From positions 1 through 17,668 of IMG/VR virus record IMGVR_UViG_3300025450_000021: 17,668 bases of DNA; one strand, 5' to 3'. This DNA comes from a virus (taxonomy: Duplodnaviria; Heunggongvirae; Uroviricota; Caudoviricetes). How positions within the stretch are numbered: position 1 is the first letter of the stretch; each line of letters starts with the position of its first letter. The notes below the pieces were generated by a model. The model made no database searches. It was not told the DNA's origin and saw only the letters and a list, made by a program, of their open reading frames with translations. Positions 1-15,917 of the stretch are shown piece after piece. The position numbers were made by a program, and so were the translations under genes.

Positions 1-96
1 ATTGTCACCGACTTCACGTTTGATCTCAAACTTATTTAGGTCTGTAGTTTTCATACGGTGAATTAATTCATCAGTTATTTGTTTGGCGTTCTGCAT
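1..96 (-). CDS. Hypothetical protein, 5' part only (MQNAKQITDELIHRMKTTDLNKFEIKREVGDN...), runs off the left edge
   Basis: Not in the ORF track. ATG at 96-94 with a GAGG SD 6 nt upstream (103-106). The frame is open to position 1 and overlaps the end of the upstream gene, as neighbouring genes do. Confidence 0.6.
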   Translation of the reverse strand, partial: MQNAKQITDELIHRMKTTDLNKFEIKREVGDN

Positions 97-439
97 CTCG
101 TTCCTCTTTGAATTTTTCAACATCTTCAACAGCACTTAATAGTGTATGAGCATAGTTAAATGCTTGTTGTTTACGCATAACTAGGGTAGACTCTGTATCG
201 ATATAGCCTTTAGTTAACAATGTCCAAATATGATGCCAGCGATCCTTGCTCCACCAATTGCTTCTTACAGTTGTATAAACAGTAACACTGACTTCGCCAT
301 GATCGTCAGCTTCTACCCATACATGATGATCGTGCTCAGAAGCACCACACTCACAGGCAACTCGGTAGACTTTACTCTTACCCCAGTCGTTAGTTTGCAT
401 AATACCTTCAGCTGGTACTTGTATTCTTAGGTCAGTCAT
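71..439 (-). CDS. Hypothetical phage protein with a possible metal-binding CxC...H motif (ACECGASEHDHH)
   Basis: 122-aa ORF whose ATG overlaps the folE stop (ATGA, 436-439). Cys/His cluster near the N-terminus. Confidence 0.75.
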   Translation of the reverse strand: MTDLRIQVPAEGIMQTNDWGKSKVYRVACECGASEHDHHVWVEADDHGEVSVTVYTTVRSNWWSKDRWHHIWTLLTKGYIDTESTLVMRKQQAFNYAHTLLSAVEDVEKFKEERDAERQTNN

Positions 440-1206
440 TTAGAAGCATACTCCTGTTGCATTTTAATATTGTCAAAGAATTCTTTCTTTGTGCCAGCAT
501 CATTAGTAAACGCACCTTTGAGTACTGTGGTCTGTGTTAAACTACTCTTGGCCATAATACCGCGATTCTCACAGCAACCATGTGTAGCTTGAATATACAC
601 ACCTAAATCCATGGCTCCTGTAGCTTTTTGGATTTCCCTAGCAATATCGTTACACAACTCTTCCTGGAGAGTCCCGCGACGAGCACACCACTGAGCAATA
701 CGAGTGTACTTAGACAAACCAATAAGTTTTTGTGCGGCGATGATGCCAATGTAAGCGACACCAGTAACGGGCTGATGATGATGACTGCACATAGAGCGGA
801 GCTCACTACGTACCACCAACATACCTTCGTATCGATCCACCGAGTCGTTGGGAAATGCTGTTGCGTCTGGTGCTGGTTCATATCTGCCACTCATTATTTC
901 GTTGAAATACATTTTAGCTAATCGCTTGGCTGTACCTTTGCTATTAGGATCATTTTCACGATCAATAAGCAAACAATCTAATACTTTTTCAAAAGCCTTA
1001 GTAGCTTCTTCGATTAAGACTTCTTTTTGTTCTTCGTCGACAAACTCGCTAATGTTGTCACCGGCCCAAAAACGTTTGCCTCGTCGTTTCATTTGAAAGC
1101 GGATAACATCTGCTAGATTACATTCTTTATAATTTTTGTCATCATCGCCTTGCTGTTCTGCGCCAGCAAGAATGTTTTCGTGTTCGTATATTCTGGATTC
1201 AGTCAT
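436..1206 (-). CDS. folE: GTP cyclohydrolase I (FolE)
   Basis: Family motifs RLAKMY.NEIMSG, SMCSHH (Zn ligands), LIGLSKY.RI, RR..LQE.L and ATHGCC..RGI (third Zn Cys), plus C-terminal GAF...K.EF. GGAG SD at 1212-1215. Confidence 0.97.
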   Translation of the reverse strand: MTESRIYEHENILAGAEQQGDDDKNYKECNLADVIRFQMKRRGKRFWAGDNISEFVDEEQKEVLIEEATKAFEKVLDCLLIDRENDPNSKGTAKRLAKMYFNEIMSGRYEPAPDATAFPNDSVDRYEGMLVVRSELRSMCSHHHQPVTGVAYIGIIAAQKLIGLSKYTRIAQWCARRGTLQEELCNDIAREIQKATGAMDLGVYIQATHGCCENRGIMAKSSLTQTTVLKGAFTNDAGTKKEFFDNIKMQQEYASK

Positions 1207-1223
1207 TATTACTCCTATGTGTT

Positions 1224-1253
1224 ATTATATAGGTTTATTTAGGTCGTTGTCAA
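1224..1253 (-). promoter_or_regulatory. Sigma70-type promoter upstream of folE (TTGACA-N18-TATAAT)
   Basis: Reverse complement reads TTGACA (1253-1248), an 18-nt spacer, then TATAAT (1229-1224), a perfect consensus. The spacer also contains TAAATA. Confidence 0.8.
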
Positions 1254-1453
1254 TTATTTTGTGCTCGAAGTTTACGGCATGCTTCTTTAACAGGTATAGG
1301 ATAGTCAGGACTAATTTCCGAAATTGAACAATCATATTTTACAGTAATGGCAGGATGTACAGTTACATACCATGCTGTATAGATGCAGGCAGTTAATGCT
1401 ATAATAAGGATTGTGATTACATCCCAATTTTGTCTGATAAAAGTATTTTGCAT
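1250..1453 (-). CDS. Small membrane-anchored protein (one TM helix followed by a CxxS...C segment)
   Basis: 67 aa with hydrophobic stretch VITILIIALTACIYTAWYVTV and a C-terminal YDCS...PDYP..VKEACR segment. Fills the gap in the minus-strand run. Confidence 0.65.
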   Translation of the reverse strand: MQNTFIRQNWDVITILIIALTACIYTAWYVTVHPAITVKYDCSISEISPDYPIPVKEACRKLRAQNN

Positions 1454-1635
1454 AAATGGTAATCTTTTTTTGATTTAAAACGAAAAAACATACAATTAGT
1501 ATGGGGATGACTAGTATATCTATCACCGGGCAATCCAAACACTTCTACAATATCGGCACATAATTCATTCCACCAATATTCTTTTTGACCCTGCCAAGGT
1601 ACTTTGATTTCCCAAAGGATATCAGTAACGTCCAT
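1417..1635 (-). CDS. Hypothetical phage protein
   Basis: 72-aa ORF overlapping the upstream stop region. Protein-like composition (VPW...WWNE.CA..VE.FGLPG.RY). Confidence 0.7.
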   Translation of the reverse strand: MDVTDILWEIKVPWQGQKEYWWNELCADIVEVFGLPGDRYTSHPHTNCMFFRFKSKKDYHLCKILLSDKIGM

Positions 1636-1780
1636 TTAATTTTGCTTCTTTTAATTCATCTTGAAGATAATCAATGTAGCTAGTTAGTGCCATACGTGCA
1701 TTTTCTGTATCGGCAGATCTCAAATCTTCTTCGACTTTTTTAATCTTATCTTCAATTTCTGAAACAGTTAACTCATTCAT
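1622..1780 (-). CDS. Small coiled-coil hypothetical protein (52 aa)
   Basis: Start reassigned to ATG 1780 (MNELTVSE...), which has a GAGG SD and an ATGA overlap with the upstream stop at 1777-1779. Heptad-like charged helix. Confidence 0.7.
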   Translation of the reverse strand: MNELTVSEIEDKIKKVEEDLRSADTENARMALTSYIDYLQDELKEAKLNGRY

Positions 1781-1974
1781 TTCTTTAACCTCGTAGCAAG
1801 ACTGCCTCCAAATAATACATTGAAAGCTAACCAAGTTTGCCAAGTAAATGGGATATTTAATACTGGAAATAAAGTATTCAAACTCCAAATACCTACAAGG
1901 GGTCCAAATACAACTGCAATTACAATAAATGCAATACCAAATGTAAGTTTTATTAATGCTGAAGTCATAGTCAT
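1777..1974 (-). CDS. Small membrane protein (65 aa, about 2 TM)
   Basis: Start reassigned to ATG 1974, with an ATGA overlap with the PRTase stop and a GGAGG SD. Two hydrophobic stretches. Confidence 0.7.
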   Translation of the reverse strand: MTMTSALIKLTFGIAFIVIAVVFGPLVGIWSLNTLFPVLNIPFTWQTWLAFNVLFGGSLATRLKK

Positions 1975-2462
1975 AACCAAAAATCCTCCCAAGGATAAAC
2001 TAACCAGCAGTCTTCTTCTGCTTTGTTTACAGACCAAACATAATAGTCTGGGTCTTTGAATTCACTGCTGAGGTTGTGTGTTAAAACTGCAAAGCGAACT
2101 GTATCGCCCCAAACATATTGCCATTGGGTCTCACCGGGTAAACAACTAGATTGCCAATCTTTTTTAATCCAAGCGACAGTAGATCCTTGATCATTGATGT
2201 CATCAACAACAAGAATCCGTTTACCTTCATAAGCATCTTCGGCCATATTACAGTTACTAACACAATCTCCTCCGTCGCGTAGACTTACGTCTAACGATTT
2301 CATCGGAATACCGGTATACTGACTTAATAAATTAGCTGGCACAAGTCCACCGCGGGTTATACCTACAATATAGTCGGGACGCCAATAGTGTGCCGACATT
2401 TGGCGAGCGATATCTAATACCGCTCCTTCGACTTGTTGCCAAGTGTAGTGGATTTTTTTCAT
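1971..2462 (-). CDS. Type I phosphoribosyltransferase, purine (xanthine/hypoxanthine-guanine) PRTase-like
   Basis: PDYIVGITRGGLVPA and the PRPP-binding loop RILVVDDINDQGST. C-terminal WLVYPWE as in xanthine-guanine PRTases. Start reassigned to ATG 2462 (ATGA overlap). Confidence 0.9.
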   Translation of the reverse strand: MKKIHYTWQQVEGAVLDIARQMSAHYWRPDYIVGITRGGLVPANLLSQYTGIPMKSLDVSLRDGGDCVSNCNMAEDAYEGKRILVVDDINDQGSTVAWIKKDWQSSCLPGETQWQYVWGDTVRFAVLTHNLSSEFKDPDYYVWSVNKAEEDCWLVYPWEDFWL

Positions 2463-2698
2463 GCTGTTAGGCCACTTGCCAATGTTTGGCATTCTTCCTT
2501 AGTCATAAAGAAATTATATGTTTGTGAGTCAACAACTTCGCCATCTTTTAAATGTTGCTGTTCTAAATCAAGAGCAAACAAACCTTTTGGAGCAAGTACT
2601 TCGTGTTTCTTTAACACAAGTCGAAAACCTTCTTGTTCTTTGATAACTATTTCTTTGTAGGTATCTTTAATTGATTCGTGTAATTGTTCAACTTGCAT
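2459..2698 (-). CDS. Hypothetical protein (79 aa)
   Basis: Start reassigned to MQVEQ (ATG 2698), 6 nt after a GGAG SD inside the upstream gene's 3' end. Confidence 0.7.
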   Translation of the reverse strand: MQVEQLHESIKDTYKEIVIKEQEGFRLVLKKHEVLAPKGLFALDLEQQHLKDGEVVDSQTYNFFMTKEECQTLASGLTA

Positions 2699-3080
2699 CT
2701 TCATCTCCTTTAATTGCTTCAAATGTTCTATATTTGCCCAAAGCATTGATGTAGTCATCATATAACTTCTTTAGCTTTGGATGTTTACGTTCTAGTGTAA
2801 CATCTCTTTCTGGAATTTGCAAGACTTTTTCAATTGTCTTTAGCCGTTCTTCCAGATCGCGGCCATTTATTACAAGATTACCTTTGACATCTAATGTAGG
2901 CGGGTTGGATTGACTGATTGTCAGTGCGGCATCATAAGGATTGGCAACACTAGTACCAGTAGTCCAGACAGTGTTAGTTCCAGTCGACGTTAAATAACCA
3001 CCATTTGGTATAGTAGCTGTGCTGGTACCATTAGTATATACTGAAGTAGCAGTTGTATTAATTGTTGGGAAGTAGGCCAT
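2688..3080 (-). CDS. Hypothetical protein, Thr/Gly/Ser-rich N-terminus and helical C-terminal domain
   Basis: Low-complexity N-terminal half followed by GNLVINGRDLEERL...KHPKLKKLYDDY. Start probably ATG 3080 (MAYFP); the track start is 3092. Confidence 0.75.
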   Translation of the reverse strand: MAYFPTINTTATSVYTNGTSTATIPNGGYLTSTGTNTVWTTGTSVANPYDAALTISQSNPPTLDVKGNLVINGRDLEERLKTIEKVLQIPERDVTLERKHPKLKKLYDDYINALGKYRTFEAIKGDEDAS

Positions 3081-3549
3081 TCTTTCTATCACTTAAATAT
3101 TTTTCAAAGTGGATCCATTTATTTTCTACAATAAATCCCCACTCGCGTTGGCGTTTGCCCACAAAGAACAATGTCCATGGAGTAACGCCTTCTTTTAATT
3201 CAATACGATGGAAGGTATGTGTGTTACCAAAACGGAAACTGCCGGGGCCACGCCATACTCTTACTTCACAGTTCTTTGTACCATCTTCGTTAAATTGAGC
3301 GATCCACTCATAGTAGCCGCCAGCAAGAATAATAGTAAAATAGTTCCAAGGATGATCATGAACATCATCTGGATCTGATTTTAAGAACTTGTGTAAAAAT
3401 ACGTTGTAAGGGAATGTTACACGTTCTTTGAATAGAACATAGTAACGTTCGAGATATGGTTCGTTCTCTGCACGATCCATAATGATGCGTTTACGGTCAT
3501 GGCGTTCAAGCCAATTAAGGACGAGGTCTTTGATCTTCTGGAGTATCAT
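3058..3549 (-). CDS. Cupin-fold (RmlC-like) metalloprotein
   Basis: Cupin motif 1-like LHKF..SDPDDVHDHPW.YFTIILAGGYYE and motif 2-like GPGSFRF...HTFHRIEL, followed by WTLFFVG.R.REWGF. Confidence 0.75.
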   Translation of the reverse strand: MILQKIKDLVLNWLERHDRKRIIMDRAENEPYLERYYVLFKERVTFPYNVFLHKFLKSDPDDVHDHPWNYFTIILAGGYYEWIAQFNEDGTKNCEVRVWRGPGSFRFGNTHTFHRIELKEGVTPWTLFFVGKRQREWGFIVENKWIHFEKYLSDRKNGLLPNN

Positions 3550-3949
3550 AATGGTCTTTCACTAGTTGATAAGTTGTTTTAAATTTTTCAAATGCTATTT
3601 TTAATCCAGGATATTCATCGCACATTTTTTGTATTCTACTTATATCGGGCAATGTATCTACAAATTCTATAGGCATCTTATATTCGTAGCCTGCTGAACC
3701 TGTAAGAGTAATAGTAGGACCCGAACCGATAGTACCTGAAACAGCACCAGTACTACTAATGGTAAAAGCATTACCACTCGATATTCCTGCACCTGTATAG
3801 TAATAACTAGACCCTGTAGTACTATTAATAGTAATATTACTTAGGGCAGATATTTGATCAGACGTTAACGGTTGTATTTCTTGAGCTGTTATACCAACAG
3901 AATCACTTGACCAATTGAAGGAGTTTGTTAGCACTGAAGAAGTTGTCAT
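3515..3949 (-). CDS. Hypothetical protein, Ser/Thr/Gly-rich N-terminus and helical C-terminal domain
   Basis: AAGGA SD 5 nt before the ATG. Low-complexity region followed by KMCDEYPGLKIAFEKF, similar to the C-terminus of 2688..3080. Confidence 0.75.
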   Translation of the reverse strand: MTTSSVLTNSFNWSSDSVGITAQEIQPLTSDQISALSNITINSTTGSSYYYTGAGISSGNAFTISSTGAVSGTIGSGPTITLTGSAGYEYKMPIEFVDTLPDISRIQKMCDEYPGLKIAFEKFKTTYQLVKDHYDTPEDQRPRP

Positions 3950-5003
3950 GTAAGTCCTTTGTTTGTTTTCGAACAGTGGGAATCATGCGTGTATGATTGT
4001 CCATTAACTCTATAATCTTACGACACAGATCGGGACGATATACAGTATAAGCATTAAAATCTTCTGTCCATTTGCTTGGATATTTAAATCCTTCATAATA
4101 CATTTCGCTGTAACTAAGTCTATCGGGTACTAGCGGAATAGCATCAACTACCGCACCTTCATAGCAACTAATGCCTAGTGTTTCTTGTAAGTTAGCACTA
4201 AACACCATCTTTGCTTCGCCTAACAAGTTATGATATTCATTTTTTGTTAGCTGTTGATCCTGACACACTACAAATTCATACTGCGGTAAATGCGTAGCTA
4301 AGTCTCTGAAAATCTCAACTTGCTTCTCGGGTGCGATGCGATGAGGGAAAAGAATTAGATTACGCTTGGGCATGTTCTTATACATGAGTAGTATATCTTC
4401 CATATACTCCATCGGCCACCCTGTTTGTTGCATCTTGGGAAATTTACTGTCTAATACTTCGGCTAAATCTTCTTCATACCAAGGATTTTCATTTTGAAAT
4501 CCTCCGTTGAGTAATTCTCTAAAGAATAATTCCATATGAAATTTAGTAGCAAAGTAATTATGATCAAACGCATGATAAAAACTTTGTTCAGCGTGTCTAA
4601 CCCAAGGTTTAGCACCGACTAGACGTCCTAAGAAATCTTGAGGATCATAACTGCCAGCATGCCATAGGCCGTGTGTTGTTACAGGAATTTGCAACAACTC
4701 ACTCATATACTTTAAGTTTATGATACCAGGGTGCCAAGCATCAGTGAAGATGAAATGATCGCCAGGCTGAACTGATCCGGAGCAAAATAGACGCCCCATT
4801 TGTTCCACTTGTCGAGACTTATATATATTGGTGCCGCCAAAATTAAGAAAAGCACCAGGAGTAGTGGCTGTAGGAATATCCGTAGGCCCAGATATAATTT
4901 GAACATTGTGTCCTGCCTTTCGTAAGAGAGCAGGTACATGAGTCTTCCATTGACCCGTGTACCTAGTTTCAACAGCTTCTAAATCAATTAGAAATACGGT
5001 CAT
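3903..5003 (-). CDS. Glycosyltransferase, GT-B fold (GT4-like)
   Basis: 366 aa. C-terminal nucleotide-sugar-binding motifs FPHRIAPEKQ (R..xEK) and QETLGISCYEGAVVDAIPLV (E.FG...lEA...G.P.v type EX7E motif). Confidence 0.88.
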   Translation of the reverse strand: MTVFLIDLEAVETRYTGQWKTHVPALLRKAGHNVQIISGPTDIPTATTPGAFLNFGGTNIYKSRQVEQMGRLFCSGSVQPGDHFIFTDAWHPGIINLKYMSELLQIPVTTHGLWHAGSYDPQDFLGRLVGAKPWVRHAEQSFYHAFDHNYFATKFHMELFFRELLNGGFQNENPWYEEDLAEVLDSKFPKMQQTGWPMEYMEDILLMYKNMPKRNLILFPHRIAPEKQVEIFRDLATHLPQYEFVVCQDQQLTKNEYHNLLGEAKMVFSANLQETLGISCYEGAVVDAIPLVPDRLSYSEMYYEGFKYPSKWTEDFNAYTVYRPDLCRKIIELMDNHTRMIPTVRKQTKDLHDNFFSANKLLQLVK

Positions 5004-5241
5004 TATTGTATCTCGGATTTTTACCTAGATAAGGTTTACGTTCGCCTGTGAAAGGCTTCTTAGGACGACGTGTCTTGTCGAAGTTACGCCACTGCCAGCT
5101 TTCTCTGTTGTAGAGGTGAGCTTCGTTAAACTCGCAGAGTTCTGTACGGCACCAATCATGGAATGCCTCGAGATCATCAAATAATTTAACAATATCGGGA
5201 CGTGTTTCGAAATAACTAAAGTCCTTGTAATTCTTAGCCAT
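4984..5241 (-). CDS. Hypothetical protein (85 aa, basic C-terminal tail)
   Basis: TAAGGA SD upstream. Lies between the QueD-like gene and the glycosyltransferase and overlaps the GT start. Confidence 0.8.
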   Translation of the reverse strand: MAKNYKDFSYFETRPDIVKLFDDLEAFHDWCRTELCEFNEAHLYNRESWQWRNFDKTRRPKKPFTGERKPYLGKNPRYNNDRISN

Positions 5242-5252
5242 TATAGCTTTCC

Positions 5253-5651
5253 TTAATATTTAATAAATGAACCATTTTCTCCGTCTTCGGAGACCTCAAT
5301 CCAAACCTCACGGCTTGGATACTTTTGTGAAATCATGTCATACAAATCGTCTGACATCATCTCGCAACTTTTATAATCCAGTTTTAGTATACTGTCTTTG
5401 TATAAATTTTCCAACCAGCGTTTGAACTGGATGAATTCGACATCACGGTCGTTGTGGGTAACTGAAAGCCAAACACGAAAATGGAATATATGACGATGAG
5501 GAGTAGCCAAAAACGATACATCATATTCATCTCCTGTTGCTAAGTTTGGATCAGTTGCGGCCGCTGGATAAGCATGGATGCCTTCTTTTTGGAAGGTGAC
5601 CCAGATCATCTTGTTTGGTCGCCAGTCTTGACGTAGTGTACTTTGTGTCAT
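5253..5651 (-). CDS. dpdL: QueD/PTPS-like T-fold protein, DpdL-like (predicted 7-carboxy-7-deazaguanine decarboxylase family)
   Basis: PTPS-like pattern: N-terminal His (EGIH), HxH pair (PHRH), EFIQFKRWL (DF..lK equivalent), SCEMM (T/SxE) and C-terminal IEVSEDGENGS (V.V.E). The QueD CxxxHGH motif is replaced by LATPHRHIF = LxxxHRHxF (5484-5510), which I recall as the DpdL signature. Confidence 0.75.
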   Translation of the reverse strand: MTQSTLRQDWRPNKMIWVTFQKEGIHAYPAAATDPNLATGDEYDVSFLATPHRHIFHFRVWLSVTHNDRDVEFIQFKRWLENLYKDSILKLDYKSCEMMSDDLYDMISQKYPSREVWIEVSEDGENGSFIKY

Positions 5652-6250
5652 ATAGTTTCCTCAAAAAGGTTTTGATAATTTGAACGGGACATTCTTTCTA
5701 TTGCTGGCATATCATCTTTACTTAATCTAAAGTAAAAACTATCGGATCTAGAATTACATTTTTCAAAATATCCCCAATGACCTTTGACATGTGTACAACT
5801 TAAGGCTGTGTTAGAAACAATTTGATCTTTTCCGTGAATAAATGCTTCTTTAAATTTTTGTTGAATATGTGGAACTGTAAAATCAAATAATTCAGCTTTG
5901 ATAATTTTAAAATTTTCTGTAGTAACTCTTATCTGATATTGTAATTTTTGCCAAATGCTTGAATCTTCATATAATGTATTGGCAACTTTTGAAGGATGTA
6001 TAGTTCCAATAGTATGAGGACTTGTAGCAGATACATCTCTAGTCTTAACTTCTACATAGTATGTAATATTAAATAAATTAAGTACTAACGTAAAATCGGC
6101 ACCTTCTCCGGGTTGGATAGGAACGCCCATATTTCGTAGTATAAGTTCAACATGGCGACCAGCTTTTCCTCCTTGGTTAGTTGGAACTATAAGTCCGACT
6201 AATGGTTGACAAATCTGCTGTTCTATAAGTTGTCGAATTTGTGTATTCAT
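5648..6250 (-). CDS. PD-(D/E)xK nuclease, restriction-endonuclease-like (MutH/Sau3AI/MvaI-type pattern)
   Basis: GGKAGRHVELIL (motif I Glu), GADF (motif II Asp) and YVEVKT (E-x-K). Markedly more AT-rich than its neighbours. Confidence 0.65.
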   Translation of the reverse strand: MNTQIRQLIEQQICQPLVGLIVPTNQGGKAGRHVELILRNMGVPIQPGEGADFTLVLNLFNITYYVEVKTRDVSATSPHTIGTIHPSKVANTLYEDSSIWQKLQYQIRVTTENFKIIKAELFDFTVPHIQQKFKEAFIHGKDQIVSNTALSCTHVKGHWGYFEKCNSRSDSFYFRLSKDDMPAIERMSRSNYQNLFEETI

Positions 6251-6786
6251 AATGATGTGTCTTGTGTATACTGATCCCAGTGAGTATATTTGTCCATACT
6301 CATTAGATCATGTAGTTGATGTGTCCACACACCTGGATTTGTAGCACCCCAAGTGCGATCATCCAGTTTAAGTGTGGCGTTATAGTTGTGTTGATTAATG
6401 TAAGGTAACTTAACACTAATCATAGGTACGAATCTCGGATATTCACTGTATCCAGATTCAAGTACACCTTCAGAGTGACTGACATCAAAATCTAAAGTCA
6501 CCCAGTAGTCTTTCTTTAAACATGGAATAATAACATTATCCCACGCTCGATATTCTTCGTGGCTAATTGCTTTAGGATTAAAACTTTGGCTAGTACCAAA
6601 ATAGATATGCTTGATACGTTTAGATTCATCTAACATTGCTTGACTGTCATCGGCAATACGCAGGATATCTTCTACAGGTGGCGTGCCTACAACAAATAAT
6701 GTAAACATGCCATGACAAATAGTATGCTCTACTTCATAACCTGTAAAGTAAACGACACCTTGTCGTTCTTCTGTGTTTAATCCCAT
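6247..6786 (-). CDS. Protein of unknown function (179 aa) within the modification cluster
   Basis: GAGG SD, start overlaps the MDR gene end and stop overlaps the nuclease start. Alternating beta/alpha pattern (TLFVVG, HIYFG, WVTLDF, ISVKLP, TLKLDD). No family recognised. Confidence 0.8.
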   Translation of the reverse strand: MGLNTEERQGVVYFTGYEVEHTICHGMFTLFVVGTPPVEDILRIADDSQAMLDESKRIKHIYFGTSQSFNPKAISHEEYRAWDNVIIPCLKKDYWVTLDFDVSHSEGVLESGYSEYPRFVPMISVKLPYINQHNYNATLKLDDRTWGATNPGVWTHQLHDLMSMDKYTHWDQYTQDTSL

Positions 6787-7682
6787 TTGATATAACCTCT
6801 GCTGTAACCCTTCGGACGATTAACGCCGTCCGCAAACGCTTGTTGCCATTCTGTAGTACGATTGTAACATCTTGTCCAAAAAGAATCAACCTCTAAGTAG
6901 CCTTTTTCAATCCAATATTTTGCCATATGCATACAATCTATAAATTCTGGATTGCGTGGACTTGGTTTGATGGTAGTAACAGCCTTCCAAAGTTGAGCCT
7001 GTGCTTCTTGTTTGCTAACAGCCTTGCCAACTCCGTCGATAATGACCGCATTGTTATTTAGGTTAATCTGTGTACCTAGCTCATAGTTACCACTTAGATC
7101 GATAACAATATCATAGTTTTCAATAGTACTGGACAATAGTTTATCCTTCCATAGGGCTCGATTACTATGTCCTAGCACATCCACGTGGAAGATATAACCA
7201 TTTAGCCGTAGTGTATGATAAGCTACCCAGGCAAGAAACCCACTGCCAATAATTAGTACTCTGTTATTTTCATTTCTGCCTTGCTTGTCCTGGAAATACG
7301 TCTTAGATTGATTAATAAGATTAATGCCACAAGCTACAGGTTCTAAAATGTAACGAGGATGTGCTTCGGGAATTTTAACATATTCATCTTCTTTAACATT
7401 GTAGTAGTCGGCATAGGCCGGTTCACCACGTGTAGCAACAAAGTCACCGATATTAACTGTTCGTACTTGAGAACCAATATTAGTCACTTGACCGATACCT
7501 TCGTGCCCTTGCATGTGCAATGGTAGTGGCCCGAAATCGCCCATCATCATGTCGATGTCACTGCGACAAACACCAGTCATAACTGCTTTAACTTCAATTT
7601 CGTTAAATGCTATATCGTTTTTGGCATAATCTACTTCTTTGAATACACCGTCGCCGACAGTTTGTAAACATTTAACCATCAT
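6777..7682 (-). CDS. Zn-dependent medium-chain dehydrogenase/reductase (sugar/polyol dehydrogenase-like)
   Basis: GVCRSD (catalytic Zn Cys), GHEGIGQV...G..V....IGDFV, LEPVACG and Rossmann VLIIGSGFLA. Lacks the structural-Zn 4-Cys lobe. Start reassigned to 7682/7679 (overlap with upstream TGA). Confidence 0.88.
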   Translation of the reverse strand: MMVKCLQTVGDGVFKEVDYAKNDIAFNEIEVKAVMTGVCRSDIDMMMGDFGPLPLHMQGHEGIGQVTNIGSQVRTVNIGDFVATRGEPAYADYYNVKEDEYVKIPEAHPRYILEPVACGINLINQSKTYFQDKQGRNENNRVLIIGSGFLAWVAYHTLRLNGYIFHVDVLGHSNRALWKDKLLSSTIENYDIVIDLSGNYELGTQINLNNNAVIIDGVGKAVSKQEAQAQLWKAVTTIKPSPRNPEFIDCMHMAKYWIEKGYLEVDSFWTRCYNRTTEWQQAFADGVNRPKGYSRGYIKWD

Positions 7683-8560
7683 AAAACTTCGATTTGTTTG
7701 TGTATCCATATATCTTGTTCTAGTTGTTTTTGCCAGAAGTTATCGTTATTTAGGTTTTCAACAGCATCTTTAATCATATTTAGGTAAGCATCTTCCGGAC
7801 ACCAACCTAAATCAAAACGTTCTACTGTGTTATCTTGCATTATAAACTCTATGGCACTATTTTCATAGTCCATACTTCGCCAATTAGCACTACAATGCCA
7901 TTTATTACCAAAGTTTATATTACACTTGTCATCCACATCGTATGTGCCATTCGGATTAACAACGCCATACTCTGTACTATCTATGTCTTTTAGTTCCCAC
8001 ATCATCTGTGCGCCTCGACCATTTACTTGATCCTTGCGCCAATCAGGATTCATAGCAATATATAGACTTAGCAAGTGAGGCATTAAGTCTCGACTAACTC
8101 CGCCAAAAGCCAGTTTGCGTGTAGTAAACCAACTGCCGGGACTAGGTATACAGTTCTTACGTGTCCATTCGATATTTACGGACTTAGCTCGCCTTGCTGA
8201 TTCTGATAATTCGGTAATATTACTACGCCACATATTGTTTTTAACCATCATAAAGCGTGTACTTGGAAATGTCTTAACTAAGGTATACCATATATTACTA
8301 GTGCTGACGCCAGGTTTTTCGATAAACACCATACTAGAACATTTAGCAACCTTAGTAGCAATATCAAAGTGTGTAAAATTAGGAGTACAAATATGTACTG
8401 TATCAAACATATGACATGCTACAATAGCCGCATCCACTGTTAAAAAGTCTGCACCTTTAGCAGGATCGCTATCTACAGTAACAATACCGTGACCAAGTTT
8501 ACCTAATACGGTAGCATATAGATTGCCAATACCCATGCCTACAACAAGACTAGTTTTCAT
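7679..8560 (-). CDS. Gfo/Idh/MocA family NAD(P)-dependent oxidoreductase
   Basis: N-terminal Rossmann LVVGMGIG, VHICTPNFTH, the family EKP motif (VFIEKPG) and GGVSRDLMPH (GG...D...H catalytic motif). Confidence 0.9.
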   Translation of the reverse strand: MKTSLVVGMGIGNLYATVLGKLGHGIVTVDSDPAKGADFLTVDAAIVACHMFDTVHICTPNFTHFDIATKVAKCSSMVFIEKPGVSTSNIWYTLVKTFPSTRFMMVKNNMWRSNITELSESARRAKSVNIEWTRKNCIPSPGSWFTTRKLAFGGVSRDLMPHLLSLYIAMNPDWRKDQVNGRGAQMMWELKDIDSTEYGVVNPNGTYDVDDKCNINFGNKWHCSANWRSMDYENSAIEFIMQDNTVERFDLGWCPEDAYLNMIKDAVENLNNDNFWQKQLEQDIWIHKQIEVL

Positions 8561-8810
8561 TTGTAAACTTCTTCCCTTCTTCCCAATACTTAATCATACG
8601 TTGTACATCTTCCATCCGTTCGGTTATAACTTCTGGAGCCGCACGTTCGATTTCTTTTAAATTATGATAGCTAGGATAATGACGCAAACACCAACGAGCT
8701 TGCTCACGTACTTCTTTTGGAATACGTGGAGTCTTTTGAGGATTCATTAAATCCTGTAAAAATTCTTCTGTTCGCTGTATACTTCTAAAGCGTTCATCAG
8801 GTAATGTCAT
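8550..8810 (-). CDS. Small conserved protein resembling the BPSL0761 family
   Basis: Start reassigned to ATG 8810 (GAGG SD). MTLPDER.R....EEFL..L...PRIPKEVREQAR.CLRHYP matches my recollection of that family. Confidence 0.6.
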   Translation of the reverse strand: MTLPDERFRSIQRTEEFLQDLMNPQKTPRIPKEVREQARWCLRHYPSYHNLKEIERAAPEVITERMEDVQRMIKYWEEGKKFTNEN

Positions 8811-10500
8811 GTACACTGGCCTCGAGTTCGTCAAGTTTGTCACTAACTTCTTCAGAAAAGTCTGGTTCATCTTCTAATTGTACACTCGTTGCGTCTACTT
8901 CGTCAAACAATTCGAAATATTTGGTAGTAGCATTAACTGTCTTTTTACCAGTATAGCCACGTGTTCCGGGAATAGCCATCCAAAATTTACTAAATTCATC
9001 AATAATAGCGTTGGCAGTATCTCGATCATCTGTAGCAAATATAGCTTCGATTACATCTTTAGCATAAAGCCTATCAAATTTTTCTTGTACCAGCATAGTC
9101 GGACACTTACCTGCATCATATTGACGATTGGCTTCCTGTACAGCATTGATATGCATCCAAACATTATGTCCCATCATGATAGCATAGGTAAAACTATCCC
9201 AACTAGTCTTGCCAATCTTACCAATTTTATTCATATCATTTGGACCATAGATACAAATTTCGTTAACTTTGACACCATCCATGATAGGGCTTGTGGTAAA
9301 ACTATCAAAATGTCCGTCTTGTACTACTACGTCTTGGAAGAGTCTTGTGTCTTGAGCGTACTTTTTGTCATCAAGAGACGGCAACATGCGGTAGAGCCAT
9401 TTTTCTCTATCGGTAATTTCTGTTTGGACATAGATTTGTCCATTTGCTGTTGCAAGGAACGGCGAGGCGCAATCAAAAGAGATGGTAAAGTTTTCATTAT
9501 GATATTTCCTTATAGCACGTTGTATGTCGGTTAAAATTAATGCCCACTCTAACTTACTGGTGCCCAAGAAATGCATCCAGTCCTGATGTCCTTTTTCAAG
9601 AAGTCCATCAAAGCGTAACGCCACTAGACGTTTTAACGTCAAGTGAATATCGCACATATTTTGTCCGCCCATAGCCCAACCATTAAATGGTTTGTCATAT
9701 TTCTTAGGATCGCAAAAGTCTTTCATTTGTTGATACCAGTCTTCTGCCTGTGCGTGATTTTCACCTTGTAATACATTTAAGAATTTACAAGCACCTGTGC
9801 GATGTTTAATGAAATATTCATTGTTATACTTGGTTGCCGCTACAGCCTGTTGATAACTTTCAATACCAGTGGCCGCACGTCCAACAGGACTACGTTCAAC
9901 CCATGCAGGAATATCAAGTACCATGCCATAATCCATTAAGGCGTCCATCCAAGCAAGAACTTGTTCACGTTTCTTTTGTGCCGCATCTAACTGTGCTTGA
10001 TACAATTTTGGATGATCAATTTTAGACATTTTAGGATTTCCATTCTTGTCTAATTTAGGATTACCTGTGGCATCTAGTTGTGGAACGAGCTCAACACCTT
10101 TTGCATTAACTTCTATCCATTTGGCCGCAACTTCTGGTCCAAGCGGATCTCGCCATTCACCGGCCCACACACCTTTACCAATTTGGAATCCGCCTGAATC
10201 TCCTAGTACCCAACTAGTACTACGATCTCTATTGCGAAACATATCTTCGCTTGGATCAGGTTTAGTCAAATCTAAATTAGCATGTCCAGCTGAGTACAAA
10301 CAATGGTCAAAGTAAAATGCCGCTTTGGGATTTAGATAGTTCATTGCTTCAACCCCCATGGGTCCAAAGCTAGCAGGAATACGTGCAGGATCAACATAGT
10401 TGCCATACCGTTGTTTACCTATGTATGTACTAAAGAATCCCGACGTTGCCGGCAGGAAGTACGCATAATCATTCTGAGTAGCTGTTAAATTTTTATTCAT
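8797..10500 (-). CDS. dpdA: TGT-fold guanine transglycosylase (DpdA-like DNA 7-deazaguanine insertion enzyme)
   Basis: TGT/DpdA barrel motifs in the expected order: LGDSGGFQ (10183-10200 for DSGGFQ), MVLDIP, NVLQG, GWAMGG, MHFLGT, SFDCASP (nucleophile Asp position) and MGHN. Start reassigned to ATG 10500 (ATGA overlap), giving 567 aa. DNA rather than tRNA as target is inferred from the phage context. Confidence 0.85.
   Translation of the reverse strand: MNKNLTATQNDYAYFLPATSGFFSTYIGKQRYGNYVDPARIPASFGPMGVEAMNYLNPKAAFYFDHCLYSAGHANLDLTKPDPSEDMFRNRDRSTSWVLGDSGGFQIGKGVWAGEWRDPLGPEVAAKWIEVNAKGVELVPQLDATGNPKLDKNGNPKMSKIDHPKLYQAQLDAAQKKREQVLAWMDALMDYGMVLDIPAWVERSPVGRAATGIESYQQAVAATKYNNEYFIKHRTGACKFLNVLQGENHAQAEDWYQQMKDFCDPKKYDKPFNGWAMGGQNMCDIHLTLKRLVALRFDGLLEKGHQDWMHFLGTSKLEWALILTDIQRAIRKYHNENFTISFDCASPFLATANGQIYVQTEITDREKWLYRMLPSLDDKKYAQDTRLFQDVVVQDGHFDSFTTSPIMDGVKVNEICIYGPNDMNKIGKIGKTSWDSFTYAIMMGHNVWMHINAVQEANRQYDAGKCPTMLVQEKFDRLYAKDVIEAIFATDDRDTANAIIDEFSKFWMAIPGTRGYTGKKTVNATTKYFELFDEVDATSVQLEDEPDFSEEVSDKLDELEASVHDIT
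10030..10065 (-). repeat. Short in-frame direct repeat (GNPK-LDKN-GNPK) inside dpdA
   Basis: tttaggatttcc (10030-10041) and tttaggattacc (10054-10065) match at 11/12 positions, with a 24-nt period. Confidence 0.7.
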
Positions 10501-10850
10501 TTTATCCAATGTTGTGCTAGAACCATAAGACTTAACCAAGCCCACATGGTATTAAAACCTACAAGTGTTGGCAATGCCTTTTTACGGCTGGCCCAAATAA
10601 GGGTTACACTGGTTAATAAGGTCAAATAATATAGTTCCCAAATTTGAATACCAAAAATTAATCCAGGAATAATAATAATTGCCTTAGCTAACCAGCTGAT
10701 AAACTCGACTGTATTATAAGCAGTCCAATACTCTTTTGTAAACCACATCATATAGCAGTCACGCATATTGTGCCAACCGCTATGTGTATAGCTAATAACC
10801 ATTAGTATTAGCCATACACCGCATGCTAGCAGTATTTGATCCTGTGTCAT
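10497..10850 (-). CDS. Integral membrane protein (about 4 TM helices), function unknown
   Basis: 117 aa with four hydrophobic segments. Its stop overlaps the dpdA start (ATGA). Confidence 0.8.
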   Translation of the reverse strand: MTQDQILLACGVWLILMVISYTHSGWHNMRDCYMMWFTKEYWTAYNTVEFISWLAKAIIIIPGLIFGIQIWELYYLTLLTSVTLIWASRKKALPTLVGFNTMWAWLSLMVLAQHWIK

Positions 10851-10851
10851 A

Positions 10852-11583
10852 TTATTTGCTCTGTGCTGGTAAGATATAATTGTAAACTGCGATACCGCTA
10901 TCTACTGTAATTTGTAATGCACCTGCATCTGCAATACGCATAGTCTTGTCACCTGATAGTGCCAAAATTGCTTGTACAGCGTTCACAGGCCATGCCCACA
11001 TTTGTTTTAATTTACCAGTAACACCTGATTGGAATATAAAGCTACCTGCGTGTGTATTAGCATCGCCAAAATAAAATACTAAATTTCCATTTTCAGTTTT
11101 AACTTGAAATGTTTTTTCTTCTGTGTGGGCTGCCGCTTGATATTTTAATTTCTGAATACTGGCAACTGCTGGTTCAAATTCAACATCCCATGTAGTTCCT
11201 TTGAATTTAGCACTCTTTAATTTTTCGTTAATGATCTGTTCATTCATAAAACGATAATCATTTTCAAAGTCGCCTAATGCATTTTGAAAATGTAGTCCTG
11301 TTGGAATAATTTCGCCGTTACGGTCTTGTTTAACTACACTGATACCGGCACCTTCTTTATATTCTGGGCATTTTAAATGCAAATCTAGTTTATTAAGATC
11401 CGGCATACCAAATACGCCTTCCAACTGGTCGATTGGGTTATGTGTTTTTGCATCAACAATAACCGAACGATCTTCGGCAATCGATTCTATCTTAGTTTCT
11501 TTAGTAGTAGAACTAACTCTAACCAACGGCAAAAAGCCCAGGCTGTGTGTATGTGCTACTAGGTCTTGTAAAAAGTCTTTCAT
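10852..11583 (-). CDS. DNA polymerase sliding clamp (gp45-like)
   Basis: 243 aa with a two-domain beta-rich pattern, near polB, and C-terminal YNYILPA as in phage clamps. Start reassigned to ATG 11583 because the track's first codons contain the GGAG SD. Based on overall pattern and context, not a diagnostic motif. Confidence 0.72.
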   Translation of the reverse strand: MKDFLQDLVAHTHSLGFLPLVRVSSTTKETKIESIAEDRSVIVDAKTHNPIDQLEGVFGMPDLNKLDLHLKCPEYKEGAGISVVKQDRNGEIIPTGLHFQNALGDFENDYRFMNEQIINEKLKSAKFKGTTWDVEFEPAVASIQKLKYQAAAHTEEKTFQVKTENGNLVFYFGDANTHAGSFIFQSGVTGKLKQMWAWPVNAVQAILALSGDKTMRIADAGALQITVDSGIAVYNYILPAQSK

Positions 11584-11603
11584 ATGATTCTCCATGTTTG
11601 TTT

Positions 11604-11631
11604 ATTATATAGGTTTTTGTGACTATGTCAA
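11604..11631 (-). promoter_or_regulatory. Sigma70-type promoter upstream of the clamp gene (TTGACA-N16-TATAAT)
   Basis: TTGACA (11631-11626) and TATAAT (11609-11604). Shares an identical 15-mer around the -10 with the folE promoter. Confidence 0.8.
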
Positions 11632-12399
11632 TGTTTTTCTAACTCGTTTATTGTATTTTACTGCCGATTCTACCAATGTGTGAGATATTTGTACACTATC
11701 AGCATAATGTATAAATGCATTTGTATCCTTGGGGAAACAAGCACCACCAAATCCTCTACTGCCGTCGGAACCTGGAACTTGCATATGGCTACTACCCATA
11801 CGCTCATCCAACTTTAACAGTTCAATAATTGTATTATAATCTGCACCATTTAATTGACACATATCATAAATTTGATTAAAGAACGCTACCTTGACACTTA
11901 GGAAACAATTAGTGGTATATTTCAACATACTTGCTTCTGTCAGTGTGCAATATTCAATTGTATTTAGGTTTTTAAGTGAACTAGTAAATAATTCACTCCA
12001 AATATTGTTGGGGTTAGCACCGCCTAAAATCATATATTCTTGATTAGCAAAGTCTTCGTTAGCACTTACCGCACGTAAAAATTCTGGACTATACGCAATA
12101 CTATGTTTAGGAAAATCTGTTACAATCTTATTCAAATAGTCTGGACGTACGGTACATTTGATCAATACCGGCATAGATTCGGGAACTTGTTCCATTACAC
12201 TATAGATTTGACTAACATCACAATCTCCTAATTGTGTACTAGGAGTACCAACACAAATAATAACCCCGTCTGCATCTGGGTAGTGTTTTATTTCTCCAGT
12301 TGTATATTTTGGATCGACAACGTGTATTATAGTTTCTTTCAATGAGTTGGCTACTGCTTTGCCAACAAATCCGTGACCCGCAATTATAATTTTTTTCAT
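11623..12399 (-). CDS. UDP-glucose/GDP-mannose dehydrogenase family protein (short form, no C-terminal domain)
   Basis: GHGFVG Rossmann motif, ICVGTP, IKCTV, YSPEFLR, EASMLKYTTNCF..KVAFFN and GFGGACFPKD with the catalytic Cys and Lys. Start reassigned to ATG 12399, giving 258 aa. Confidence 0.9.
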   Translation of the reverse strand: MKKIIIAGHGFVGKAVANSLKETIIHVVDPKYTTGEIKHYPDADGVIICVGTPSTQLGDCDVSQIYSVMEQVPESMPVLIKCTVRPDYLNKIVTDFPKHSIAYSPEFLRAVSANEDFANQEYMILGGANPNNIWSELFTSSLKNLNTIEYCTLTEASMLKYTTNCFLSVKVAFFNQIYDMCQLNGADYNTIIELLKLDERMGSSHMQVPGSDGSRGFGGACFPKDTNAFIHYADSVQISHTLVESAVKYNKRVRKTLT

Positions 12400-12400
12400 A

Positions 12401-15067
12401 TTAAAACTCAAATAAACTATTAAAAGTATTTTTTTCTTCGGTACTATTTAGGTCCCACTTTAGTACACCAATTAAATTATCTAACTTATTGTCGATAATT
12501 GTTGCCTCCATTTCAGCATGATCAAAAGGTAAATCTTTGAACCACTGTGGTAATCTCAGTTCATCTACTGGATAAGCAACCGATGTATAACCTAACGGAT
12601 TAGGTTTAAGTTTACAAACAATAACCTTAGCACCGTCTGTAATAGCCATGCTATACTTGTCGTCATACATACGTTTTAATGTATTCCAATTGATACTAGC
12701 ACGGACATGCCCTGGCATATTGGTCTTACCTTGTTTCTTTTCTTTAGCACCATAATCAGTAATATTATTAGCACGTTTGGGACTACCTTTTTCCCATCCT
12801 GGACGAGCTTTGAAACGAATACGGAATTCACTAATATGATCCAGAACTTCTTGTTCAGGTTTACCCATCAATACCATTTCAAGAACATCGCTTAAGAAGT
12901 CTTGAATAAATTCTGGAGTATCACTACGTTTCAGATCCAACCCCATGGCTTTAATCTTTCCTGCTTTGCCATCTATGTCTGCACGTTTACCTTCTTTATC
13001 ATAGTAAAGAACAGCATAGCGTTTCTTAGTAATAAAAAGGGCTTTACTGCCAACAATTTCACGACCGGCACGAATAACTTCTCCACGAGTCTTTGGACAA
13101 TGAAAAGTATCTAACATAAATTGTGGAAATGTTTGATTAACTTCTTCCCCAATTTGATCGTATAATGAAATTACATTCTCTTTACTCCAAGGAATCAATC
13201 CCGCTTCGATGTCCTTCTGTAAAGTGCGATAAGCACTAAAATAACAACTATCAGTGTCACCATATATAATTGCCTTTCCTCTGTAATCATATTCGCCTGT
13301 GATAATCTCGTTTACTTTGGCCGCCATATGCCGGACAATCTGACGTCCTGTGAGTGTGGTCGATTGTCCAATTCGTTTATCAAAGAATCTACAACCGCTA
13401 TTAAGAATAGCGCCATACAGACTGTTAAGATTAATCTTCTTAACAAGTTGTCGTTTGTCCCAGTATTCTTCTTCAACTTTGTTTCCAGCTTTAATTGCAT
13501 CTTTTAATTTGGCCTGCATTTCCTTGCGTTCTGCATACCACCTTTTCAATAGCCCTGGAATTATACCTTCAATTTCATAGGTGAAGATAGTACCATTTGC
13601 CGAAAGCATCCAAGGCTGATTGCTTTCGTAAATTAATCTATATACTTCTGCCGCACTTAATACATCAACGTCGCCATTTTCCCAGTCAATTGTAATATCA
13701 GTACCAATTTCTTGATTCATTACAGCTTCGTATTCATCACTACCAAATTTACCTTCCCAACTAGCCGCAAATGATTTGCCTTTGGCCATTTGAAGTTCAA
13801 TGTATTCTTCTGTTTTAGTTTGACGTAGTTGACCAATAATAGTTTCCGGTCCCATATTTAATGCACGAATAGCACTTGGATAAAGACTGTTAATGTCTAA
13901 TGATCCAACCCAGTCCACAATACCTTCTTTAGGAACAGCAACATAAGCACCGGCAGCCGCAGTATCCTCACGTTCACTCATTTTTGTTCGATTAGGAACT
14001 TGCATACCTCTACGATGTGCTTCGTTAATAATAGCTTGTTCAGTTACAGCCACGGCACCCATTGTAGTTTGTAGCAATACTGTATTTTCATGTGCCAGTG
14101 TATTGGCTAAATCCATGAATTTTAATTTTTTATCTAAATCGTCAAGAAGTTTACAGTCATTGATGTTGTATTCAACGAATGTTTTAAAATCATTGTTGTA
14201 TAATTGATCTAGTGTACCTTCATATTGTGTTTTACGTTTGCCTAGCTCATATTCTGCAATCGCATCAAGTCTATAACTGTGGCGTTCTTCATACGTATAC
14301 TTGCGGTACAATTCGAGATAGTCTAAATGAACGCGACCAATATAGTCATAGGTTACACTATTTCGACCAAACTTTTCATATTCTCTACGTTTTGGAAATT
14401 GATCAAACAAACAAAAACGTCTTGTGTCTTCTTTACTCAATACTTTTGTCACGCGATTAGTTGTGTAAGGAATATCAAATCCTTCTGAGTTCCAACCGCT
14501 AATAACATCAGCATCTTTAATTAGATCCAAAAACATATCCAACAAATCTGCTTCGTTATCAAACAAGTATGTATTAGGAAAGTCTTTGACCATTTCTTTA
14601 GCTTCTTCCATCTCAAGACCCTTAGGAGGAATAGCCATACATACCATAGTTTCTAACCATTGTAGGTAGACAGCAATCGCAGTAATTGGCATGAATGCAT
14701 CGTCTGGACTTGCATAACCACGTTCTGGATCAAAGTCTACCTCAATATCAAAAAATGCTACATTTAACTTTGGAGCATCTTGATTAATATAGTGTTCGCT
14801 TAGTGTAACAAAGATTGGATTAATGTCTGCTTCGTACATTTCCTTGCCACTATTGATGGCTTGTTCTTTGCGTAGTTCTTTTGTGTTTTTACAAATGATA
14901 CGAGTGAGTTGCTCACCGTAAATTGAAGTATGTTTACCCTTAGGGTCTTTAACATAAAATGTATGGCGTACAGGAATATCTCTAAATACTCTTTTGCCAT
15001 CTTTATTTCGCTCAACGATTTTTATAATATCGTTCTCGCGGTCAAACCATGCGTCTACATAAGACAT
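12401..15067 (-). CDS. polB: Family B DNA polymerase with 3'-5' exonuclease (gp43-like)
   Basis: ExoI FFDIEVDF, ExoII GWNSEGFDIPY, ExoIII YNINDC, motif A SLDINSLYPS, motif B KINLNSLYG and motif C YGDTDS. 888 aa with no intein apparent. Confidence 0.98.
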   Translation of the reverse strand: MSYVDAWFDRENDIIKIVERNKDGKRVFRDIPVRHTFYVKDPKGKHTSIYGEQLTRIICKNTKELRKEQAINSGKEMYEADINPIFVTLSEHYINQDAPKLNVAFFDIEVDFDPERGYASPDDAFMPITAIAVYLQWLETMVCMAIPPKGLEMEEAKEMVKDFPNTYLFDNEADLLDMFLDLIKDADVISGWNSEGFDIPYTTNRVTKVLSKEDTRRFCLFDQFPKRREYEKFGRNSVTYDYIGRVHLDYLELYRKYTYEERHSYRLDAIAEYELGKRKTQYEGTLDQLYNNDFKTFVEYNINDCKLLDDLDKKLKFMDLANTLAHENTVLLQTTMGAVAVTEQAIINEAHRRGMQVPNRTKMSEREDTAAAGAYVAVPKEGIVDWVGSLDINSLYPSAIRALNMGPETIIGQLRQTKTEEYIELQMAKGKSFAASWEGKFGSDEYEAVMNQEIGTDITIDWENGDVDVLSAAEVYRLIYESNQPWMLSANGTIFTYEIEGIIPGLLKRWYAERKEMQAKLKDAIKAGNKVEEEYWDKRQLVKKINLNSLYGAILNSGCRFFDKRIGQSTTLTGRQIVRHMAAKVNEIITGEYDYRGKAIIYGDTDSCYFSAYRTLQKDIEAGLIPWSKENVISLYDQIGEEVNQTFPQFMLDTFHCPKTRGEVIRAGREIVGSKALFITKKRYAVLYYDKEGKRADIDGKAGKIKAMGLDLKRSDTPEFIQDFLSDVLEMVLMGKPEQEVLDHISEFRIRFKARPGWEKGSPKRANNITDYGAKEKKQGKTNMPGHVRASINWNTLKRMYDDKYSMAITDGAKVIVCKLKPNPLGYTSVAYPVDELRLPQWFKDLPFDHAEMEATIIDNKLDNLIGVLKWDLNSTEEKNTFNSLFEF

Positions 15068-15082
15068 AAATTTTTTTCTCCA

Positions 15083-15128
15083 TGCAATTTAAGGCTTGCA
15101 AATACCCATGTGCGATTTGTTGGCTCGC
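15083..15128 (-). promoter_or_regulatory. Two small hairpins in the polB leader; candidate translational operator
   Basis: On the mRNA strand: GCGA-N9-TCGC (15128-15112), then TGCAA-GCCTTAAA-TTGCA (15100-15083), ending 1 nt before the GGAG SD (15081-15078). Confidence 0.4.
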
Positions 15129-15135
15129 TGGACCT

Positions 15136-15657: not shown

Positions 15658-15659
15658 AT

Positions 15660-15917
15660 TTAAATACGTTTTGTAATATCCAAAATTGCTTCAATTTCTT
15701 CCCAGTCTTCGTTATATTGTTGCCAATCGCCTTTATGAGCAATCTTGATAGCCTTGTTAATAACGCTAGGTTTAATTTGTAATTCTTCGGCAACTGCTTT
15801 AACAGTTTCTTTTAAGCCTTCTTGCAAATCTTCTACTTCACGTAATACAGTAGAACCCTCGCTAATTAGTCGTTCTAATTTTGCTTTTTCTTCTGCGCCA
15901 TAATTTCTGCCTGCCAT
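15660..15917 (-). CDS. Small DNA-binding protein, T4 DsbA / GapR(DUF2312)-like
   Basis: 85 aa, helical. KLERLISE...EVEDLQEGLKETVKAVAEELQIKPSVINKAIKIAH fits the DsbA/GapR pattern. Strong AAGGAG SD. Confidence 0.6.
   Translation of the reverse strand: MAGRNYGAEEKAKLERLISEGSTVLREVEDLQEGLKETVKAVAEELQIKPSVINKAIKIAHKGDWQQYNEDWEEIEAILDITKRI

Follow-up and report, generated by a model that had tools for sequence, protein, structure and literature searches.

What would a phage gain from a restriction-type nuclease lodged in the operon with which it is predicted to alter its own guanines? The question is raised by IMG/VR virus record IMGVR_UViG_3300025450_000021, an 81.7-kb viral contig of which we analysed the first 17.7 kb (positions 1 to 17,668; hereafter the window). 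The minus strand of the window carries, at 5648-6250, an open reading frame (ORF) for a 200-aa protein (P0001), which its translation and predicted structure mark as a stand-alone PD-(D/E)xK endonuclease of MutH/Sau3AI fold, embedded among genes for 7-deazaguanine (dpd) modification. A sequence-only reading of this DNA had proposed a recently acquired endonuclease for which the guanine modification serves as the protective partner, with a free-standing selfish nuclease as the alternative. We tentatively favour a modification-sensitive, restriction-like enzyme, carried as an optional cassette from an old gene family, and weigh this below against a homing role and two further explanations.

Fold and active site of the nuclease

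Comparison of the ORF with its relatives shows a genuine gene that purifying selection maintains: the ratio of non-synonymous to synonymous substitution (dN/dS) lies between 0.05 and 0.3 in pairs of relatives, and not one interrupted copy was found in about 100 loci. Searches of Pfam, PHROGs, NCBIfam and PADLOC gave no match to the protein, and PDB sequence searches with the protein and two profiles returned nothing relevant. Neither megablast nor tblastn against 50,697 GenBank phage records found a match to the nuclease, so the cultured phages that have DpdL (ACP17, PA5oct, Phosso and phiST) are without a detectable relative; prokaryote genomes, searched with one peptide pattern only, also yielded none, which is weak evidence of absence. 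Metagenomic data contained 14 homologues with identities of 55-98%, and a profile search of 1.84 billion representative sequences recovered about 260 clusters at 50% identity, nearly all of 180-200 aa. All of the family members sampled come from metagenomes or viral contigs; of those looked up, none carries an NCBI accession and none has been characterised.

An AlphaFold model built on an alignment (predicted local distance difference test score, pLDDT, 87.5) placed the protein close to MutH. The best VIA-align match was MutH 2aoq_A (Z 13.4, 171 of 200 residues aligned, root-mean-square deviation 3.3), followed by the N-terminal (4pxg_B, Z 11.4) and C-terminal (Z 9.9) domains of Sau3AI, with other type II restriction enzymes at Z below 8. 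The top five Foldseek matches are all MutH, and an ESM Atlas search agrees with a MutH-type assignment. The Pfam MutH model (PF02976) is matched by 7 of 82 family members (best E 1.3e-5), P0001 itself giving no match to it at E 0.01, and a profile-profile alignment to E. coli MutH made with hhalign reached E 1.2e-4 at 55% probability. This alignment sets E35, D52, E67, K69 and K102 of the nuclease against E56, D70, E77, K79 and K116 of MutH. The corresponding codons lie on the minus strand at 6146-6148 (E35), 6095-6097 (D52), 6044-6052 (E67-V68-K69, opposite E77-L-K79 of MutH) and 5945-5947 (K102). E35, D52, E67 and K69, the E...D...EVK pattern on which the sequence-only reading had relied, do not vary among 15 close homologues; across 38 different full-length relatives D52, E67 and K69 are 100% conserved, K102 is invariant and E35 is conserved at 97%, so that the pattern, now backed by the fold and by the sequence bridge to MutH, stands. 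On its predicted structure, the nuclease belongs to the MutH/Sau3AI branch of the PD-(D/E)xK superfamily as a single-domain member. Putative DNA-facing residues (R71, Q104, Q106, R108, Q130 and R175) are likewise invariant across members from different genomic contexts, and one shared short site therefore fits better than locus-specific long targets. The sequence alignment to MutH extends only to about position 142 in the family profile (about 170 in MutH), leaving the C-terminal third unaligned.

The kinship with MutH, the endonuclease of methyl-directed mismatch repair in E. coli and Haemophilus (PDB: 2aoq, 2aor, 2azo), thus covers the fold, the five active-site residues, a similar size and a single domain. 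The two differ in that identity is only about 15%, that the C-terminal third of MutH, home to its GATC-reading and methyl-sensing residues R184/K186/Y212, has no aligned counterpart, and that the nuclease is phage-borne and lies in a deazaguanine operon, with no mismatch-repair context noted (MutS and MutL were not searched for). The monomeric type II enzymes Sau3AI and MvaI/BcnI (PDB: 4pxg, 7xm0, 2odh, 2oa9) share the fold family (Z 11.4, 9.9 and 7.5); they are site-specific, and whether they cut a short site depends on how its bases are modified. Sau3AI, however, has two MutH-like domains where the nuclease has one, and there is no cognate methyltransferase at the nuclease locus, although one relative does adjoin N6-methyltransferase genes. 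By sequence and gene content, the nuclease appears to be neither MutH proper nor part of a classical restriction-modification pair.

The lack of a methyltransferase, already claimed for the window in the sequence-only reading, extends beyond it. No DNA methyltransferase Pfam match occurs among the 27 window ORFs; six-frame searches of the contig with PF02086, PF01555, PF00145, PF05869 and PF02384 were negative, as were searches with PF02086, PF01555 and PF02384 in larger related contigs that are 29-60% complete, and no Dam-type methylase (PF02086, PF05869) was found in the contig or in five relatives. The nuclease is not next to a cognate methyltransferase gene, and the gene layout at the window locus is not that of a type II restriction-modification system. 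Such a classical layout does occur at one locus, L060, where a nuclease relative directly follows N6-adenine methyltransferase genes. In detail, positions 4974-10607 of this 71.6-kb viral contig hold a 229-aa family member after two or three ORFs of Eco57I/N6_Mtase type, with a gene for a DUF7487/Vsr-like nuclease coming after it; from its gene content the locus looks like a classical restriction-modification-like island in a phage. Site avoidance was also tried as a clue to specificity and gave none: loci with the nuclease show no depletion of any 4-6-mer compared with loci that lack it, nor do they avoid GATC, which stands at 1.07-1.12 observed/expected where the nuclease is present.

An optional cassette in the deazaguanine cluster

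The nuclease gene sits inside a genuine 7-deazaguanine gene cluster, as judged from motifs, database matches and a structural model, and modification of DNA is its predicted outcome. Immediately downstream is the gene for a DpdL-like protein (5253-5651, minus strand; phrog_17812), a proposed 7-carboxy-7-deazaguanine (CDG) decarboxylase whose LATPHRHIF motif bears the DpdL signature LxxxHRHxF. The protein shares 34% identity (E 1e-16) with DpdL of Cellulophaga phage phiST (gp040) and 53% with the ACP17 homologue; DpdL itself was defined in earlier work (PMC10516641). A 582-aa DpdA-like DNA guanine transglycosylase is encoded at 8797-10545 (minus strand) and was revealed only by a fold search, since the Pfam model for tRNA-guanine transglycosylase (TGT) fails to detect it, even in a six-frame search. 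Its DSGGFQ motif is invariant, and the top 50 Foldseek matches to its model (pLDDT 78) are all TGT (E from 6e-8); an Atlas search also gave a lead to TGT. GTP cyclohydrolase I (FolE), which catalyses the first step of the 7-deazaguanine pathway, is encoded at 436-1206 (minus strand; PF01227, E 7e-38), and a QueD-like PTPS gene lies outside the window on the same contig (contig positions 61912-62388); of two radical-SAM frames further along the contig, QueE can be named as a candidate only. The dpdL-like neighbour and the guanine-modification setting put forward in the sequence-only reading are thus both borne out.

Further observations concern individual cluster members. The DpdA-like protein is much longer than a typical DpdA or TGT, with a poorly modelled C-terminal tail, and its alleles in related clusters fall into two classes, at about 35-40% and 60-86% identity to that of the window. 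A 247-aa gene of the cluster was considered as a DpdA3 of phiST type and dropped for want of any similarity.

The nuclease ORF is joined to its neighbours by ATGA overlaps on both sides, as the sequence-only reading had noticed: the stop of the upstream 179-aa gene overlaps the nuclease start at 6247-6250, which forms the upstream edge of the cassette, and the nuclease stop overlaps the dpdL start at 5648-5651 (both minus strand). Promoter-like matches around the gene do not exceed the shuffled expectation, and there is no terminator-like site near it on the coding strand. Its composition is low in GC, at 31.8% compared with 37.8% for the contig, the fourth lowest value among 93 ORFs; just 1.3% of 603-nt segments are equally AT-rich. 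GC at third codon positions is 15.4%, the lowest in a set made up of the window ORFs and the contig's 15 ORFs of lowest GC, and the hand count of 46 in 180 (25.6%) at 5821-6000 given in the sequence-only reading is exact. Close to the 3' end of the gene, at 5671-5679, is the 9-nt string ATTATCAAA, which also forms the first codons of dpdL in several relatives with nothing between the two neighbours (L132, L074 and L086); the match may be a recombination scar or chance.

Two sets of loci were used to follow the gene through related phages. The first comprises 59 viral contigs found via the nuclease, plus L004, and in about 52 of these 60 loci the nuclease occupies the same slot, the usual order being PolB, the 247-aa gene, the DpdA-like gene, a variable stretch, the 179-aa gene, the nuclease, DpdL and, further on, FolE. 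Among loci with more distant relatives of the nuclease, about 24 of 44 again place it within the dpd cluster, some in a different order (DpdA, nuclease, 179-aa gene, DpdL), and about 20 of 44 place it elsewhere, beside HNH, MazG or ligase genes; as all of the related contigs are fragments, missing dpd genes near these out-of-cluster relatives are uninformative. The second set comprises the best 80 of at least 585 IMG/VR contigs with a close DpdL relative, a number suggesting that T4-like jumbo phages with a deazaguanine cluster form a very large group as yet uncultured. The nuclease is present in 10 of the 74 dpdL loci that could be evaluated.

The 179-aa gene just upstream of the nuclease (6247-6786, minus strand), whose product has no family match, is by comparison a constant member of the cluster, present at 52 of the 60 nuclease loci and at almost every dpdL locus, with a homologue in the deazaguanine cluster of ACP17. 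It was considered as a nuclease-specific partner and rejected, because it occurs with or without the nuclease. The protein evolves fast, keeping 37-92% identity in relatives whose DpdL keeps 62-96%.

Between the 179-aa gene and dpdL the dpdL loci are hyper-variable (L067-L146, at about 5400-6000). The slot is empty in about 27 loci, where the two genes overlap directly by ATGA; elsewhere it holds a family of 115-140 aa (34 loci), a family of 65-75 aa (19 loci), 2OG-Fe(II)/DUF6445 oxygenases (L068, L120 and L131), a GIY-YIG gene (L069) or an HNH gene (L136). The edges of the exchanged segment are sharp. L133 and L136 have flanks about 91% identical and carry in the same slot a MutH-like gene and an HNH gene, respectively; the similarity between them breaks off at the slot gene's start codon and resumes about 20 nt before dpdL. 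Between the window and its nuclease-less relatives homology ends no more than a few bases from where the nuclease gene starts and, where the slot of the relative is empty, returns about 20 nt into dpdL, so that the window lineage differs from the empty-slot relatives by the nuclease ORF and about the first 20 nt of dpdL.

Mapped onto a tree of 107 distinct DpdA sequences, the presence and absence of the nuclease requires 16 changes, 13 of them forced by well-supported branches, compared with about 36 when the labels are shuffled. All 24 members of one clade carry the gene. Of the 10 in the clade to which the window belongs, 3 have it (the window, a near-twin and L073), and the nearest relatives are without it. 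The allele of L073 is only 33% identical to that of the window though closer in DpdA, and the allele of L004 is 61% identical though further in DpdA. Overall, nuclease identity follows PolB identity (Spearman 0.66), and there are no pairs with nuclease identity of at least 70% and PolB identity below 75%. Taken from these sequence comparisons, the nuclease gene is an optional, precisely bounded cassette from an old family. The recent acquisition suggested in the sequence-only reading survives in part. Its compositional argument falls away: in 56 of 60 loci, across genomes of 37-52% GC, the GC content of the nuclease gene is lower than that of the flanking DNA by about 3.4 points, also in a clade whose every sampled member carries the gene, and because the offset is family-wide and tracks the GC of each genome, AT-richness is a family trait and no sign of recent arrival. 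What remains in its favour is that the cassette is optional and that the window's nearest relatives lack it.

A possible restriction-like role and its rivals

We put the probability that the protein is a modification-sensitive, restriction-like nuclease at about 0.4, on the strength of the sequence comparisons and the model. A single-domain MutH/Sau3AI-type endonuclease would here be translationally coupled into an operon that makes 7-deazaguanine and inserts it in phage DNA. The enzyme would act as a monomer, nicking or cutting a short guanine-containing site in ordinary DNA, and its targets would be host DNA or the DNA of rival phages without the deazaguanine mark; the phage's own deazaguanine DNA would be immune, the N7 contact being missing. 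Base replacement would then take the methyltransferase's part in a restriction-modification pair, comparable to hydroxymethylcytosine with T4 endonucleases II and IV, and because a global change of G would shield the phage from many site-specific nucleases, gain, loss or exchange of such cassettes would be possible without a cognate methylase. In favour of this role we count the MutH/Sau3AI fold with its five conserved active-site residues, the dpd-cluster location recurring in two gene orders, the ATGA coupling to dpdL, the absence of a detected methyltransferase and of an avoided short site, the methylase-linked relative at L060, purifying selection without broken copies, and basic and amide residues that are invariant across contexts.

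Two known systems offer analogies. T4 endonucleases II (DenA) and IV (DenB) attack unmodified DNA, from which the hydroxymethylcytosine genome of the phage is protected. The proposed arrangement would likewise pair a phage nuclease against unmodified DNA with a global base replacement as protection; it differs in the folds of the enzymes, in the modified base, which in T4 is C and not G, and in timing, as T4 incorporates its base while replicating and the insertion of deazaguanine is proposed to follow replication. The bacterial Dpd system (dpdA-K) is a 7-deazaguanine-based restriction-modification island in which deazaguanine is the self mark. The phage cluster may resemble it in pairing such a mark with restriction functions; the bacterial system, however, is a multi-protein helicase/nuclease set, as opposed to a single small MutH-like gene, and no PADLOC model matched the nuclease.

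Several observations tell against a restriction-like role. With the gene in just 10 of 74 close dpdL clusters, the nuclease is not needed for modification. HNH, GIY-YIG and 2OG-oxygenase genes turn up in its slot as well, which is thus a general hot-spot, and about a quarter of the family loci lie outside dpd clusters, beside HNH, MazG or ligase genes. The sequence does not reveal the recognition site, since the C-terminal third has no alignment with the R184/K186/Y212 region of MutH. Deazaguanine insertion is thought to be post-replicative (PMC10516641), and nascent phage DNA would therefore be transiently unprotected; the extent to which a divergent DpdA replaces G may add a further uncertainty.

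A selfish nuclease stays a serious rival, since most dpd clusters are without the gene and homing-type HNH and GIY-YIG genes share its slot, even if we regard it as somewhat unlikely. As a free-standing homing-type endonuclease, the protein would cut a target near the junction of the 179-aa gene and dpdL in cassette-less relatives during mixed infections, and recombinational repair would then insert a copy of the cassette, as with the Seg and Mob genes of T4-like phages; the operon position would reflect where the target lies and carry no functional link to deazaguanine. The gene does resemble Seg, Mob and Hef of T4-like phages, and the PD-(D/E)xK homing enzyme I-Ssp6803I, as an optional gene between conserved genes, sporadic in close relatives and swapped in its slot with HNH or GIY-YIG genes. 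Its scatter among otherwise collinear relatives (10 of 74 loci, 3 of 10 in the window's clade, 16 changes with 13 forced) is what homing would produce, as are the clean cassette edges, the exchange of a MutH-like for an HNH gene between L133 and L136, the GIY-YIG gene in the slot of L069 and the conflict of the nuclease tree with the DpdA backbone at L073 and L004; nuclease GC below that of the flanks and the HNH genes adjoining family members in non-dpd contexts fit as well. Set against these are the stable retention of the gene throughout the 24-member clade, the absence of degenerate copies among about 100 loci with dN/dS of 0.05-0.3, and the tracking of PolB by nuclease identity, with no near-identical copies in diverged backbones. 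The closest folds, moreover, are short-site restriction enzymes and a nickase and include no known homing enzyme, placing the protein in a restriction-enzyme catalytic family; its residues are conserved family-wide despite the different genomic contexts, and no long homing target could be inferred. Restriction-like and homing roles are not mutually exclusive, because restriction genes are themselves mobile.

The variety of cargo in the slot, unrelated 2OG-Fe(II) oxygenases and small ORFs among it, also leaves room for a nuclease that is simply parked in a recombination hot-spot, with a role unconnected to base modification such as superinfection exclusion, nucleotide scavenging or anti-defence by another route. 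The occurrence of family members in several other neighbourhoods of replication and nucleotide-metabolism genes would suit such a role, but the recurrence of the dpd-cluster location in two gene orders and the translational coupling to dpdL argue otherwise, and we consider it improbable. Least probable of all, and clearly unlikely, is that the phage uses the protein as a MutH-like nickase on its own hemi-modified DNA, with deazaguanine in the old strand and guanine in the new; the enzyme would nick the new strand in the service of strand-directed repair or to start recombination-dependent replication, its signal being base replacement and not methylation. MutH, a monomeric nickase that reads hemi-modified sites, is indeed the best structural match and agrees in size and single-domain build, and if DpdA-type modification is post-replicative, as proposed, hemi-modified DNA must exist. 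Yet most relatives with the same modification cluster do without the gene, the region that holds the methyl-sensing residues of MutH is unaligned, and no mismatch-repair genes were noted in the window, where MutS and MutL were not specifically searched for.

Neighbouring genes and wider meaning

The contig comes from a giant freshwater phage; CheckV estimates the contig's completeness at 22%, corresponding to a genome of roughly 350 kb. All of the window genes are on the minus strand, and besides those discussed they encode a T4-type family B DNA polymerase, a DsbA-like protein, 2OG-Fe(II) oxygenases, sugar-nucleotide enzymes and a phosphoribosyltransferase. Downstream of dpdL, at 3903-5003, is a gene for a 366-aa protein with faint Pfam glycosyltransferase matches only, labelled as a glycosyltransferase in some phage records; it adjoins DpdL in the window, in ACP17, in PA5oct-like phages and in Sinorhizobium phage Phosso, and the PA5oct-like phages also retain a 582-aa DpdA-like gene beside it. 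Genes for Zn-ADH-like (zinc alcohol dehydrogenase-like), Gfo/Idh/MocA, BPSL0761-family and UDP-glucose dehydrogenase-like proteins (6777-8870 and 11623-12411) are interleaved with the deazaguanine genes; as they are absent in L004 and variable in other relatives, they are accessory. Across the whole contig GCGC is strongly depleted (30 observed, 88 expected), CGCG, GGCC and several GC-rich 6-mer palindromes are likewise under-represented, and GATC is not depleted.

A full-text literature search found no paper linking a MutH-like nuclease to phage deazaguanine clusters. The family could yield new modification-sensitive enzymes for mapping 7-deazaguanine. Should the nuclease prove to be a homing enzyme, a restriction-type fold would be added to the mobile nucleases of T4-like phages. 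If instead it cuts normal DNA and leaves deazaguanine DNA intact, no earlier restriction-like enzyme carried by a phage would have been keyed to the replacement of a purine. A global base change would then act as a universal immunity, letting phages acquire and swap restriction nucleases without methylases.

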